From Candidatus Methylomirabilota bacterium (GTDB lineage Bacteria > Methylomirabilota > Methylomirabilia > Rokubacteriales > CSP1-6), in contig DASXSB010000030.1 in NCBI GenBank assembly GCA_036506275.1, positions 46,683 through 110,682 on the forward strand: a DNA stretch of 64,000 bases, in the 5' to 3' direction. A program made the position numbers and the translations under genes. Position 1 is the first letter of the stretch. Each line of letters opens with the position of its first letter. The notes beneath the pieces are model-generated. The model had not been told where the DNA came from. It was given only the letters and a program-made list of their open reading frames with translations, and ran no database searches. Of the stretch, positions 8,989 to 14,795 are shown piece after piece.

Positions 8989-9363
8989 TCAGGCGGCGAG
9001 AACCCGGCGCACCGTCTCCGTGAGCGAAACGACCGTGAACGGCTTCTGGAGGAACGCGCCCGGCGGGAGCGGACCGCTCTGGCTGACCACGTCCTCGTGG
9101 GGCTGGCCCGAGATGTAGAGGACGCGGGTGGCGGGGCGAGCCCCACGCACCCGTCCCACCAGAGCGGCGGTGCCGAGGCCGGGCATCTTGAGGTCGAGGA
9201 TCATGAGATCGAGGTCTCCGGGATGGGAGACGGCGAGCTTCAGCGCCGCGTCGCCGTCACCGGCTTCCAGAACGCGATATCCCGCCAGGTGGAGGACCTC
9301 GCGGATCAGGCTTCGTATCTCGCCGTCGTCCTCGACGACCAGTACCGTCGCCGCCTCCGTCAC
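8989..9363 (-). CDS. Single-domain response regulator (CheY-like receiver)
   Basis: VLVVEDDGEIRSLI ... DLMILDLKMPG ... YISG receiver motifs; no output domain. The start overlaps the upstream HK stop. Confidence 0.8.
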   Translation of the reverse strand: MTEAATVLVVEDDGEIRSLIREVLHLAGYRVLEAGDGDAALKLAVSHPGDLDLMILDLKMPGLGTAALVGRVRGARPATRVLYISGQPHEDVVSQSGPLPPGAFLQKPFTVVSLTETVRRVLAA

Positions 9364-11294
9364 GACCGTAGCTCACCGGGTAACCCCGGCATCGCCACCG
9401 GCAACGTGACGCGGAAGGTCGTCCCCTCCCCGGGCGCGCTCTTGAACGTGATCGTCCCGCCGTGTCCCTCCACGATCTTGTGGGTGATGGCGAGGCCGAG
9501 GCCGGTCCCCTTTTCCTTGGTCGTGAAGAAGGGATCGAAGATTCGCGACGCGTCCGCGGCCGCGATGCCCACCCCGTTGTCCTCGATCTCGACCGCCACC
9601 GGTCGGGTGGCGGGATGCGGTCGGAGCACGAGGACTCGTGCGTCCGCGCGTTGCTCTCGGGAGAGCCGCAGCATCAGACACCCCCCGCGCGGGAGCGCGT
9701 CGATGGCGTTGGCGACGAGGTTGACGAACACCTGATAGAGATATTCCCCGTCGCCGTGCACGGGGGGGAGCCCGCTCGCGTATTCGCGGTAGACGCGGAT
9801 CTGCTTGGCGTCGATCTCGTTCGCGTGGAGCTCGACGACGCGATCGAGGAGCGGCGCCAGCGGCACGCTCCGGAACTGCGGCGGCGCCGGCCGCGCCAGC
9901 TCGAGGAGCTGCTCCACGATGGCGTTGATGCGCTCCAGCTCGCGTGGCACCACGCTCAGGAATTTTTCCTGGAACTGCTCGTCGCCGAAGCTGCGGTAGA
10001 GGCGGCGCGTGAACAGGAGCACGGACGTGAGCGGGTTCTTGATCTCGTGGGCGAGGCCGGCCGCGAGCGTGCCGAGGGCGGCGAGCTGGTCGGAGCGCTG
10101 GAGCTGGCTCTCGAGCTCGCGCACCACGCTCAGATCACGGATCACCCCCACCACACCGAGATCCTTGCCCTCCCCGCCGTTGAGGGGCGCCGCGCTGAAT
10201 TCGATGGGAACGGAGCGGCCCATGCGGCGGCGCAGCGTGAGCTGGATCTCGCCGCTGGGCACGCGCGTGGAGAGCGTCTGCATGAGCAGCTCGCCGAGGG
10301 CGGGGGTGGGCGCGAACACGTCGGTGCAGTAGCGCCCCACGACCTCGCCCGCGAAGAACCCCGTGAGCAGCTCGGCGGCCGGATTGAGCGTGACGACACG
10401 TCCCTCGAGGTCCGCGGTGACGACGCCGGCCGTGAGCGAGCCGAGGATGTTGTCGGTGTAACCCTTGAGGTCGACCAGCTCCTCGTAGCGCCGGCGCAGC
10501 TGGGCGTGCGCGTGCTCGAGCGCGGTCCGTTCCTGGAGGAGCTGGGCCGTCATGTGGTTGAAGGCGCCCGCGAGCTCGCCGATCTCGTCGGCGGAGGTGA
10601 CCTCGATGCGCTGCCGCAGCTCGCCGCGGGAGATGGCGGCCGCTCCGGCCGCGAGACGACGGACGGGGCGCGCGATGTTCCGGGCCACCACCGCCGCCGC
10701 GCCGCCCCCCAGAAGCAGGACGATCACCGTGAGCCCCGCCAGCTCCCAGCGCGTCTGCCGTATCTCCGCTTCCATCGCCCGCTTCGAAAGCCCGACGCGC
10801 GCGGTTCCCCACTTCTGGCCGTTGACCATGACGGGAACGGCGAAGTCATAGGAGGCGGGACGGCCGCTCGCGGCCGGGACCTCCTGCGTCAGCGTGCTCT
10901 GCGTCCCCGCCGCGCGGTCGGCGACGGCGCCCGGCAGCACGAGGCCGACCTGCTCCGGATGGCGGCTGTGCGCGGCCACCTTGCCGTCGGCATCGAGCAC
11001 GATCGCGTAGCGGACGTCGGGCTCCGCCGCCACCCGCGCCACGTTCTGCTCGAGCGCGGTGAAGTTGTACAGGAGGATGGGCGTGTGCGACATGGCGGCG
11101 AGGTTGCGGGCGAGGACTTCGCCGCGCCGCTCGACCTCGTCGATGATGGCCGCTCGCAGCCGATGCTCGACGAGGACGATCACGGTCGCCATCACGAGCG
11201 CGATCACGAACAACGTGCCCCACAGGAGCTTGGTCTCCAGCGACATGAACCGACGGTCGCGCTCGACCTCGCTCACGGCCGGCGCTCCAGCCAC
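9360..11294 (-). CDS. Sensor histidine kinase with two TM helices, periplasmic sensor domain, HAMP, PAS, HisKA and HATPase domains
   Basis: TM1 LWGTLFVIALVMATVIVLV; a ~150-aa predicted periplasmic segment; TM2 LAGLTVIVLLLGGGAAAVVA; HAMP; H-box LAHEIKNPLTSV; G-boxes DNGVGI and GTGLGLAI. An alternative start is M17 at nt 11246. Confidence 0.8.
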   Translation of the reverse strand: MAGAPAVSEVERDRRFMSLETKLLWGTLFVIALVMATVIVLVEHRLRAAIIDEVERRGEVLARNLAAMSHTPILLYNFTALEQNVARVAAEPDVRYAIVLDADGKVAAHSRHPEQVGLVLPGAVADRAAGTQSTLTQEVPAASGRPASYDFAVPVMVNGQKWGTARVGLSKRAMEAEIRQTRWELAGLTVIVLLLGGGAAAVVARNIARPVRRLAAGAAAISRGELRQRIEVTSADEIGELAGAFNHMTAQLLQERTALEHAHAQLRRRYEELVDLKGYTDNILGSLTAGVVTADLEGRVVTLNPAAELLTGFFAGEVVGRYCTDVFAPTPALGELLMQTLSTRVPSGEIQLTLRRRMGRSVPIEFSAAPLNGGEGKDLGVVGVIRDLSVVRELESQLQRSDQLAALGTLAAGLAHEIKNPLTSVLLFTRRLYRSFGDEQFQEKFLSVVPRELERINAIVEQLLELARPAPPQFRSVPLAPLLDRVVELHANEIDAKQIRVYREYASGLPPVHGDGEYLYQVFVNLVANAIDALPRGGCLMLRLSREQRADARVLVLRPHPATRPVAVEIEDNGVGIAAADASRIFDPFFTTKEKGTGLGLAITHKIVEGHGGTITFKSAPGEGTTFRVTLPVAMPGLPGELRS

Positions 11295-13166: not shown

Positions 13167-13370
13167 ATCGCGGCGTCGATCATCGCGTCCTTCAAAGCGG
13201 CGTTATTGCTCATGCGGCGGCGCGGACACGCGGTGGCCGGTGTGGGACCGGTGTCTCATCACTGGGCAGCGCGACGTGCGAGAAGCCCGCGTCCTCGACG
13301 TAAACGGGCAAGTCATCAGGCGGGAGCGACGCTGCACAGGATCGGTGCAACCTGGCCCGAAAGTGGGCGC

Positions 13371-14795
13371 CTATGGCTCCCGACCCGGTGGCGACAGGAC
13401 CTTCCAGCGCGCGAGCTTGGCCTTCAAGGAGTTTCGGTGGAGACCGAGGACGCGCGCCGCCTCGCTCTGGTTCCAGCGCACCCGCTCCAGAACCCGCAGC
13501 ACGATCTGACGCTCGAACTCGTCGCTCGCCTCGTTGAGCGGCAGGGCGTCACCCTGTCGCACCTTGGTGCGATGCTCCGGAAGCAGCACGTCCACGGGAA
13601 GGTCGTTGAGCTCGATGAGCGGCCCGTCCACGAGAGCCACCGAGCGCTCGATCACGTTCTGGAGCTCGCGGACGTTGCCGGGCCACGCGTAGTCATGGAG
13701 CGCGGCGGCCGCGTCCGGCGACAGCCCCGTGATGCGCTTGTTGAAGGCGTGGTTGTAGCGCTTCACGAAGTGCTGGACGAGCAGCTCGATGTCATCGCAC
13801 CGCGCTCGCAGCGGCGGCACCGGGATGGGCACCACGTTCAGCCGGTAATAGAGGTCGTGGCGGAACTGCTCCTCGGCCACGGCGCGCTTGAGGTCGACGT
13901 TGGTGGCGGCGATGATCCGGACGTCGATCCGGATCGCCTGCGTGCCGCCCACCCGCTCCACCTCTCGCTCCTGGAGGACGCGCAGGAGCTTCACCTGGAG
14001 CTCCGGCTTCAGGGTGGAGATCTCGTCGAGGAACAGCGTTCCTCCTTGCGCCATCTCGAACTTGCCGGGCTTTCGCTGGTGCGCGCCCGTGAAGGCGCCC
14101 TTCTCGTGTCCGAACAGCTCCGACTCCAGGAGCGTCTCCGGGATGGCGGCGGGGTTGACGGCGACGAAGGGCTTGTCACGGCGCGGGCTCTGCCGGTGAA
14201 TGGCGCGGGCGATGAGCTCCTTGCCGGTGCCGCTCTCGCCGCTGATGAGAACGGTGGCGGACGTGCGCGCCACCTGGGCGATGAGACGGCGGAGCTTCTG
14301 CATCTCGGGGTGCTGCCCCACGAGCTCCTCGAAGTCGTGCTGGCGCGCGAGCTCCGAGCGCAGGTACACCACCTCGCGCGCCAGCGATCGGCGCTCCAGC
14401 GCGCGCCCGATCACCGAGAGGAGCTCGTCCTCCTCGAACGGCTTCGTCAAGTAGTCGAAGGCACCCGCCTTCATCGCCGCCACCGCCGTCCGCACGGTCT
14501 TCACGGCGGTGACCAGGATGACCTCGACCTGGTCGTCGAGCGCCTTGATGTGCTCGAGGACCTCGATTCCGTCCATTTCGGGGAGCCGGATGTCGAGGAG
14601 CACAACGTCGATCTGGGAGGTTCGAAGTACCTCGAGACCGCCCTTGCCGTCGGCGGCGTCGATGACGTCGAAGCTTTCGTCGAGGATCAGCCGGAACGAC
14701 TCGCGCAGCCCGGCATCATCGTCGATGACGAGGATGGCCGGTCGTAGCCCTCGCGGCGACTCCGAGAGCTCCACGCCGCGGACGTCCTGTCCCAT
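13371..14795 (-). CDS. Sigma-54-dependent response regulator (NtrC family: receiver + AAA+ sigma-54 activation + Fis-type HTH)
   Basis: Receiver ILVIDDD...DVVLLDIRLPEMDG. AAA+ motifs GESGTGKELIARAIH and GAFTGA are present. The C-terminal HTH reads SEAARVLGLHRNSLKAKL. Confidence 0.85.
   Translation of the reverse strand: MGQDVRGVELSESPRGLRPAILVIDDDAGLRESFRLILDESFDVIDAADGKGGLEVLRTSQIDVVLLDIRLPEMDGIEVLEHIKALDDQVEVILVTAVKTVRTAVAAMKAGAFDYLTKPFEEDELLSVIGRALERRSLAREVVYLRSELARQHDFEELVGQHPEMQKLRRLIAQVARTSATVLISGESGTGKELIARAIHRQSPRRDKPFVAVNPAAIPETLLESELFGHEKGAFTGAHQRKPGKFEMAQGGTLFLDEISTLKPELQVKLLRVLQEREVERVGGTQAIRIDVRIIAATNVDLKRAVAEEQFRHDLYYRLNVVPIPVPPLRARCDDIELLVQHFVKRYNHAFNKRITGLSPDAAAALHDYAWPGNVRELQNVIERSVALVDGPLIELNDLPVDVLLPEHRTKVRQGDALPLNEASDEFERQIVLRVLERVRWNQSEAARVLGLHRNSLKAKLARWKVLSPPGREP

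Follow-up and report, generated by a model that had tools for sequence, protein, structure and literature searches.

A conserved small-protein gene heads a predicted sigma-54-dependent sensory operon in Candidatus Methylomirabilota

What is the role of a 45-codon open reading frame (ORF) that stands between the gene of a transcriptional activator and the genes of a periplasmic solute-binding protein (SBP) and a sensor kinase? This question is raised by positions 8,989 to 14,795 of a 64,000-nucleotide stretch of DNA from a Candidatus Methylomirabilota bacterium (contig DASXSB010000030.1), hereafter the window. The original prediction read six co-directional minus-strand elements in this region as a peptide-sensing, quorum-like loop, and all six were found at the positions given. 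Comparison with related loci supports a conserved, coherent module composed of an NtrC-type activator, a sigma-54 promoter with upstream palindromes, an exported small protein, an orphan family-5 SBP and a Cache kinase. As judged from sequence, the module is most simply described as an SBP-assisted, sigma-54-dependent two-component system. The coherent module and its self-targeting promoter thus stand from the original prediction, while the cleaved, diffusible autoinducer is argued against.

The features of the module, from upstream to downstream on the minus strand, are the following.

13371-14795, minus strand: NtrC-family response regulator and sigma-54 enhancer-binding protein, with a receiver (REC) domain, an AAA+ domain with GAFTGA, and HTH_8
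13333-13349, no strand assigned: putative enhancer (upstream activating sequence, UAS), palindrome TGCACCGATCCTGTGCA, 183 nucleotides (nt) upstream of the -24 element
13151-13166, minus strand: sigma-54 -24/-12 element TGGCGATCGAATTGCT, of the form TGGC-N7-TTGC, with TTGC at 13155-13152
13085-13090, minus strand: Shine-Dalgarno (SD) sequence GGGGGA of the small ORF, 7 nt ahead of its ATG
12940-13077, minus strand: small ORF of 45 amino acids (aa), MRKVLAAVVIIASFLFVAPVIESAAPGSTSLFVAIGNADGGGGGE, based on the ORF listing, synteny and the codon-position pattern
12904-12886, minus strand: smaller hairpin, which precedes the main hairpin
12851-12886, minus strand: GC-rich main hairpin, with 5' arm GAGAGGAAGGGGAGC, loop CTCG and 3' arm GCTCCCCTTTTCTCTTC, overlapping codons ~12-23 of the SBP gene
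11273-12919, minus strand: orphan family-5 (Opp/Dpp-type) periplasmic SBP with its own Sec signal peptide (Pfam SBP_bac_5, 8e-89)
9360-11294, minus strand: sensor histidine kinase with a first transmembrane (TM) segment, sCache_3_2, a second TM segment, HAMP, PAS, HisKA and HATPase (Pfam)
8989-9363, minus strand: stand-alone REC protein (Pfam Response_reg, 1e-15), whose start overlaps the kinase stop by 4 nt

The small ORF and its conserved setting

Two samples of related loci were compared. The genome sample comprised 80 loci fetched with the SBP alignment, 72 of which hold the DNA upstream of the SBP gene; in the remaining 8, contig ends cut this DNA off. The metagenome sample comprised 80 loci selected solely by alignment of the small protein, with no use of the SBP. 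Each of the 72 informative genome loci has the small ORF directly upstream of the SBP gene, while in the metagenome sample an SBP gene follows it in 64 of 68 loci and a kinase gene in each of the 35 loci with enough downstream DNA. Either GGAGG or AGGGGA stands ahead of every orthologous small ORF. The pairwise differences between the small ORFs average 0.249, 0.183 and 0.464 at the first, second and third codon positions, respectively, and this pattern, low at the first two positions and high at the third, indicates purifying selection on the protein in the small-ORF frame. These comparisons argue strongly that the 45-aa ORF is a genuine gene. Its recurrence in syntenic loci answers the doubt, raised with the original prediction, that it might not be conserved there. 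The other doubt was that the SBP might be translated from the ATG at 13213, making the small ORF an out-of-frame overlap; this is excluded by the selection in the small-ORF frame and by the position of that ATG, upstream of the sigma-54 element. The SBP ATG is at 12919, and the gap between the two genes is 20 nt rather than the 21 nt first reported.

Seen in more than 140 loci, the small proteins appear to constitute a family of 41-48 aa without a description. A phmmer search of 1.84 billion representative proteins returned 33 matches, two of which are long repeat proteins and the rest small. No Pfam or NCBIfam family was found for the small protein or for 26 relatives, nor was there any recurrent family among them. 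A protein identical over its 45 aa is present in GenBank (HEY3065184.1, 'hypothetical protein', from a Methylomirabilota metagenome-assembled genome, MAG), and gene callers predicted the small ORF in related contigs, so that the ORF, originally described as unannotated, is not unannotated everywhere. A 559-aa protein of the same 90% cluster (P0157), apparently a fusion of the small protein with an SBP, turned out to be an unrelated low-GC protein and a clustering artefact. A terminator-like match within the small ORF (13012-12992, minus strand) would truncate it, and was treated as chance.

The small gene also occurs in other arrangements. Two loci carry tandem duplicates (L045:5512-5881 and L156:975-1307), in which each copy has its own SD sequence and both stand behind one sigma-54 element; in L156, the conserved hairpin, here with a T-rich tail, comes after the second copy. 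In one clade, solo copies were found (L099, L110, L111, L132 and L138; MMKFLA…GNADGGGGE), which keep the SD sequence, are accompanied by neither SBP, regulator nor sigma-54 motif, and have weaker downstream hairpins. A Phage_integrase gene lies about 2 kb upstream of the solo copy in L132.

Relatives of the SBP number in the thousands, with 63-91% identity, and the named ones are from Rokubacteria/Methylomirabilota MAGs. Modules with 56-67% SBP identity, as similar as those of Rokubacteria MAGs, were also seen under the labels Nitrospira (L006), Gaiellaceae (L010), Verrucomicrobiia (L018), Binatia (L042) and Acidoferrum (L061); mis-binning is the likely cause of these labels, and transfer is possible. 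Three pairs of loci come from the same MAG (L003/L007, L013/L021 and L002/L054), and may be paralogous modules with differing small proteins, or strain mixtures.

Promoter, upstream palindromes and the hairpin

The TTGC that had been proposed at 13152-13155 was confirmed. In the 64 kb of the window, TGGC-N7-TTGC occurs twice as compared to 0.42 expected, which by itself is not significant; the element of the module is decisive because it is kept at a set distance in other loci. It lies 77-113 nt ahead of the small-ORF ATG in about 70 of 71 genome loci and in 68 of 73 metagenome loci, and at the motif level the element is kept in ~95% of ~145 loci. Since the spacer length varies, the motif itself is conserved. 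A near-consensus sigma-54 element elsewhere in the window, TGGCACATGCGTTGCA (17002-17017, plus strand), lies within an ORF with a DAGK_cat/YegS_C product (16893-17966) and has no accompanying NtrC-type palindrome; the true start of that gene may be downstream of the promoter.

The palindrome TGCAC-N7-GTGCA at 13333-13349 is the sole instance in 64 kb, with 0.05 expected. Among the relatives, palindromes of the form (T/C)GCAC-N7-GTGC(A/G) cluster at about -100 and about -180 from the -24 element, and are often paired, 19-20 bp apart. With at most one mismatch they were found in 21 of 66 loci, as compared to 0.4 in shuffled sequences, and with at most two mismatches in 44 of 66, as compared to 5.9. 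The layout would correspond to a classical NtrC-family enhancer with its sigma-54 promoter, and the palindromes are probably bound by the product of the adjacent regulator gene. The promoter and UAS motifs accordingly mark the small gene as a probable target of two-component control, and, given that the kinase gene is within the operon, the loop would be self-inducing. No second sigma-54 promoter was found in the 0.7-1.0-kb stretch between the kinase gene and the next REC gene of the relatives (0 of 45 loci).

The regulator gene is separated from the small ORF by 293 nt (13370-13078). Its product matches Sigma54_activat (4.8e-75), Response_reg (1.4e-29) and HTH_8 (1.8e-11) in Pfam, and GAFTGA was seen in the translation. 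The gene is upstream of the small ORF in every genome locus with sufficient DNA, and an NtrC-type gene lies within 900 nt upstream in 47 of 56 metagenome loci, and farther off in three more. The regulator scores below the NCBIfam curated cut-offs of AtoC (496 vs 714), NtrC (445 vs 559) and PrsR (440 vs 503); indeed, no protein of the module reaches the cut-off of the AtoSC, NtrBC, ZraSR, PrsKR, DppA or OppA equivalogs in NCBIfam. In four loci (L033, L124, L130 and L140), the NtrC-type gene and the small ORF are parted by 2.8-3 kb of extra DNA, and in L033 no sigma-54 element was seen ahead of the small ORF.

Downstream of the small ORF, a GC-rich hairpin that looks like a terminator or an attenuator overlaps the start of the SBP gene. 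Across the loci it begins 30-110 nt past the small-ORF stop and 0-35 nt past the SBP ATG; purines prevail in its 5' arm and pyrimidines in its 3' arm. In the 140 nt that follow the small ORF, the best hairpin lies at -30 kcal/mol in the median and at -22 kcal/mol or lower in 94% of the loci, as compared to 10-26% in the controls, for which three windows within the SBP gene were used. The z score against dinucleotide shuffles has a median of -2.82 (69% below -2), and that of the controls is -0.29 (4%); the hairpin in our window has z = -2.15. A hairpin followed by a T-tract, as in a terminator, was found in 67 of 149 loci (45%) and in 5-6% of the controls. In a MAFFT alignment made without regard to the structure, both sides of the 14-pair helix changed in 51 cases, as compared to 24.6 +/- 3.8 in shuffles (0/500), and 77% of the cells are paired, as compared to 57-70% when the partners are slid. 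A search of Rfam over 12700-13500 returned just a sub-threshold match of a miRNA model on the hairpin. The SBP signal peptide carries a semi-conserved K-G-G-x2-3-P-P-F-L in its n-region, which is the protein shadow of the RNA hairpin.

The hairpin could act as a partial terminator, as a stabiliser of the 3' end of the upstream segment, or as a damper of SBP translation, and from it we infer that the small protein is more abundant than the SBP and the kinase. The SBP start (12919-12940, minus strand) has no recognisable SD sequence, which suggests translational coupling or deliberately weak initiation. A start of this kind, 20 nt past the small-ORF stop, would also suit a cis-acting leader, in which translation of the small ORF, with its Gly-codon end, governs hairpin formation and, through it, the expression of the SBP and the kinase by read-through or translation; the conservation of the hairpin, its terminator-like form in 45% of the loci and the universal C-terminal Gly run would all agree with this. 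However, residues outside the Gly run are strongly conserved with coding-type substitutions, the run itself varies in length, solo copies occur without an SBP and with weaker hairpins, and the hairpin begins ~55 nt past the stop, too far for a terminating ribosome to reach. We therefore regard the leader explanation as quite improbable.

The small protein and its predicted partners

The small protein of the window consists of MRK, an 18-residue uncharged segment running to APVIES, and a Gly-rich acidic tail, AAPGSTSLFVAIGNADGGGGGE. The family consensus is M-x-K, 8-12 variable hydrophobic residues, ASFLLVAPVIES, GTSGSTQxFQAIG(T/N)A(D/E)GGGG and a variable last residue, which among 72 proteins is D or E in 38 and aromatic in 19. 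The ASFLLVAPVIES block, comprising the C-terminal half of the hydrophobic segment and 'ES', has a pairwise identity of 78%, with 66% in the tail and 46% in the N-terminal part. As an internal control, the SBP signal-peptide region of the same genomes has 25% identity and a classic AxA-Q end. The small protein has no AxA cleavage site, and to call its N-terminus a textbook signal peptide, as was first done, overstates the case. The uncharged stretch is 18 residues long in 56 loci and 22-23 in 14 loci, through an indel of +4, and in two orthologues the residue at the would-be -1 position is Tyr. In the AlphaFold2 prediction, residues 2-23 form a single unbroken helix (pLDDT 82-94) and the tail has low confidence, a result that fits an anchored and a cleaved protein alike. 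With Lys at position 3, 18-23 uncharged residues and an acidic tail, the sequence would fit the features of small kinase modulators, namely fewer than ~70 aa, a basic N-terminus, one TM segment and a short C-terminal tail in the periplasm.

The tail was also compared with other proteins. Mimicry of a Cache beta-hairpin (YAIVLDADGK) or of a part of the SBP was rejected, as the hhalign probability was <1% for both. In a match to residues 13-43 of the small protein, the tail, PVIESGTSGSTQLFVAIGNADGG, resembles the first strands of each Big_2 Ig-like repeat of a 1412-aa protein, P0140 (VVEGSTQTFVATGNYDDGSS), in which nine stretches match, with E = 1e-5 for the whole protein, and in which Big_2 was confirmed by Pfam. 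This likeness may reflect docking of a beta-hairpin through strand addition, or chance.

The SBP is a full-length family-5 protein, ~27-35% identical to DppA, HbpA, OppA and 8upi, and the original assignment to the peptide-type family 5 holds, with the Pfam match (8e-89) and with D447. This residue aligns with D408 of DppA and is invariant in 26 of 26 family members. In E. coli DppA, D408 (mature numbering) anchors the alpha-ammonium group of the ligand. The equivalent of R355, which clamps the carboxylate in DppA, is variable, and none is conserved in the SBP family. A peptide-like ligand of more than two residues would agree with this, though the ligands of family 5 are diverse. The SBP remains far below the equivalog cut-offs of DppA (188 vs 1005) and OppA (170 vs 947), and no Opp/Dpp permease or ATPase genes lie beside it in the two gene-annotated contigs in which the neighbours of the SBP and the module were examined.

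Since family-5 SBPs bind many nutrients, the SBP and the kinase may carry out ordinary sensing of external oligopeptides or another family-5 ligand and control uptake and catabolism genes elsewhere, with the small protein as a structural or stabilising subunit of the membrane complex, like KdpF or CydX, that has no part in regulation. Small hydrophobic subunits encoded by the first cistron are common, and the window has no target promoter besides that of the module itself. The SBP could also serve an ABC importer encoded elsewhere. However, such sensing would account poorly for the conserved periplasmic tail, for a hairpin design that implies over-expression of the small gene, for the tandem and solo duplication of this gene, and for the lack of permease genes beside the SBP in the two annotated contigs. 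We consider it improbable, less so than the leader.

The SBP is also a distant relative of PrgZ (4faj, E = 1.9e-32), and the best-conserved block of the small protein is the C-terminal part of its hydrophobic segment. Both would agree with a pheromone derived from a signal peptide, as in Enterococcus cCF10/PrgZ, in which an intramembrane protease frees …FLLVAPVIES as the ligand of the SBP. The conserved tail would then be left unexplained, no site-2 protease gene is linked to the module, and we know of no precedent in diderm bacteria. This is the least probable of the explanations considered, and a very remote one.

The kinase gene follows the SBP gene in all loci. Its product contains a periplasmic sCache_3_2 region of ~140 aa, a single Cache (PDC) domain, which has no significant relative among the PDB sequences. 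Homologues align from residue ~15-18, so that the start is likely M17, at 11246. The cytoplasmic part is AtoS-like and remains under the AtoS cut-off (331 vs 646). SBP-dependent kinases are typically encoded right beside their SBP (PMC8050422), as is the kinase of the module. We propose that the SBP and the kinase contact each other physically, and that the kinase pairs with the adjacent regulator.

The two-TM kinase with its periplasmic domain, followed by a receiver, is present as originally read, but the position of the stand-alone receiver is variable among the relatives. A REC-only gene was found in the window and in the nearest relative. In most relatives, the homologous REC forms the C-terminus of a soluble HisKA-HATPase-REC hybrid kinase encoded after the sensor kinase, and in the one locus examined for this purpose (L005:9536-10825) the kinase core of the hybrid-kinase gene lies between the sensor kinase and REC. 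Other relatives have a REC-PAS-kinase gene downstream of the sensor kinase. The lineage of the window seems to have lost the kinase core of the hybrid kinase.

A Sec-exported precursor would give the module the meaning first proposed for it. Signal peptidase would free a ~22-aa peptide, GTSGSTQxFQAIGTADGGGGG[DE], which the SBP would present to the kinase in an autocrine or quorum-like positive feedback. The small protein has the n-h-c layout of a signal peptide, with Pro at -5 and small residues permissible at -3 and -1, and its tail is conserved at 66%. The SBP is Opp/Dpp-like, with an invariant equivalent of D408 and no fixed carboxylate clamp, and family-5 SBPs bind signalling molecules elsewhere (PrgZ, AibA). 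The small gene is moreover the first cistron with an attenuator-like hairpin after it, and tandem duplicates (L045, L156) and solo copies are typical of precursor-peptide genes.

Several features speak against cleavage and secretion. An AxA site is missing, in contrast to the SBP signal peptides from the same genomes; the most conserved part, the 78% block, lies within the supposed signal peptide; Tyr occupies -1 in two orthologues; and uncharged stretches of 22-23 residues occur. No processing, peptidase, PCAT or outer-membrane export gene was found in the conserved module in the two annotated contigs. Rokubacteria are predicted to be diderm (PMC5712423). With such an envelope and no linked exporter, a Sec product of ~22 aa would remain periplasmic rather than pass between cells. 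We therefore consider a cleaved peptide ligand unlikely, though more probable than nutrient sensing.

The explanation that we tentatively favour, at somewhat less than even odds, is that the small protein is an inner-membrane-anchored feedback modulator of the SBP-assisted kinase, similar to MgrB or SafA. The hydrophobic block is far better conserved than the SBP signal peptide (78% vs 25%), it has no AxA site, and in two orthologues Tyr is at -1, all of which favours an anchor. In this mechanism, the Cache kinase and the orphan SBP would detect a periplasmic, peptide-like ligand carrying a free amino group, and the kinase would phosphorylate the adjoining NtrC-type activator. The activator would bind the TGCAC-N7-GTGCA-type sites and open the sigma-54 promoter. 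The small protein would be the first product, and the most abundant owing to the downstream hairpin. It would be kept in the inner membrane as a single-pass protein with the N-terminus inside and the C-terminus outside, and contacts with the Cache/TM region of the kinase, or with the kinase-SBP complex, would be made by its APVIES block next to the membrane and by its periplasmic tail of ~22 residues. The small protein would thus be a feedback modulator induced by its own two-component system, as MgrB, SafA and UgtL are for PhoQ. The topology of the small protein, its target and the sign of the feedback are all inferred.

Other observations weigh against the anchored modulator. The excess of small protein favoured by the hairpin, the tandem duplicates and the solo copies suit a secreted precursor at least equally, and the SBP keeps the Asp that would anchor an alpha-amino group. 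I-E-S, G-T-S and T-S-G meet the -3/-1 rule, so that cleavage is possible, Pro at -5 is typical of signal peptides, and an uncharged run of 18 residues is on the short side for a TM helix. In sequence, the small protein resembles neither MgrB nor SafA. Finally, covariation of the small protein (GTA vs GNA alleles) with its presumed partners was no higher in the SBP or the kinase than in a cytoplasmic control; the maxima for the columns of the SBP, kinase and regulator were 0.45, 0.48 and 0.51, and phylogeny dominates.

The genes around the module are unrelated to it, with branched-chain amino-acid ABC permeases downstream in convergent orientation and a ComM/YifB-like Mg-chelatase ATPase upstream in divergent orientation. 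A second pair of kinase and NtrC-type regulator is encoded at 32731-35179 (plus strand); its proteins are 37% and 43% identical to those of the module, and it has neither an SBP nor a small ORF. That the lineage makes use of sigma-54 is shown by further genes of such activators, both in the window and in L082.

Relation to known systems and significance

The use of an SBP as a co-sensor is an established paradigm, represented by LuxP-LuxQ, TorT-TorS and CBP-ChiS. The closest architecture is that of AioX-AioS-AioR, which senses arsenite in Agrobacterium and others, and which likewise has an orphan SBP beside a sCache-like kinase, an NtrC-type regulator, a sigma-54 promoter and an induced SBP gene (PMC8050422). 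AioXSR differs in that its SBP belongs to Phosphonate-bd and not to SBP_bac_5, in its gene order and in the lack of a small protein; moreover, its output is aioBA, whereas the sole identified target of the module is its own operon. The closest SBP family is that of CBP-ChiS, the Vibrio chitin system, in which CBP is an SBP_bac_5 protein that controls a membrane kinase via its periplasmic domain (PMC8050422). However, CBP works in addition for an ABC importer encoded next to it, ChiS is a hybrid kinase of non-canonical type that binds DNA, and CBP-ChiS, LuxP-LuxQ and TorT-TorS all lack a sigma-54 activator and a small protein. None of the SBP-dependent systems reviewed in PMC8050422 has a small protein.

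As for the small protein, MgrB is a single-pass protein of 47 aa and SafA a type II protein of 65 aa with a periplasmic C-terminus, whose 25-aa periplasmic end binds the PDC domain of PhoQ (PMC8534201). UgtL has two TM helices, and the periplasmic regions of SafA and UgtL are ~24-25 aa long (PMC8534201). The proposed likeness lies in the small size, in expression controlled by a two-component system and in a target kinase with a PDC/Cache domain (PMC8534201). In the module, the small gene comes first in the kinase operon and an SBP is also present, whereas the genes of MgrB, SafA and UgtL are monocistronic and unlinked to the kinase, and their products have no sequence similarity to the small protein. 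The Gram-positive agr, com and PrgZ/Opp circuits are alike in that a precursor gene is linked to putative receptors, with probable autoinduction in the module, and the PrgZ case further shares a family-5 SBP as the peptide receptor. In those circuits, however, the SBP passes the peptide to an importer and not to a kinase, while the module has no linked processing or export protein, a predicted diderm host and sigma-54/NtrC regulation.

Most components of the module are ordinary, and a role for the small protein is proposed here from its setting. What appears to be new is the small-protein family, its fixed place as the first cistron and the hairpin, which were absent from the library searches and from the reviews PMC8050422 and PMC8534201. 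There is perhaps one chance in a few that the locus is instead a circuit of novel layout, in a diderm and uncultured soil phylum, by which a ribosomal peptide induces its own synthesis. An exported and processed peptide would act through the SBP, the Cache kinase and the sigma-54 activator to re-induce its own operon, with the hairpin setting a high ratio of peptide to receptor. If so, a ribosomal peptide would be signalling by way of a periplasmic binding protein, a rarity in a diderm bacterium. In either case, the hairpin is an RNA structure that shapes a signal-peptide coding sequence.

The small proteins known to tune sensor kinases are few, come from enterobacteria and were discovered through genetics. 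In the present case, genome comparison by itself brings to light a small-protein family hard-wired as the first cistron of a kinase operon, in a phylum without a cultured member, and presents a defined four-part system of small protein, binding protein, kinase and sigma-54 activator. It further indicates that a 45-aa call labelled 'hypothetical' in a high-GC MAG can stand for a real gene.

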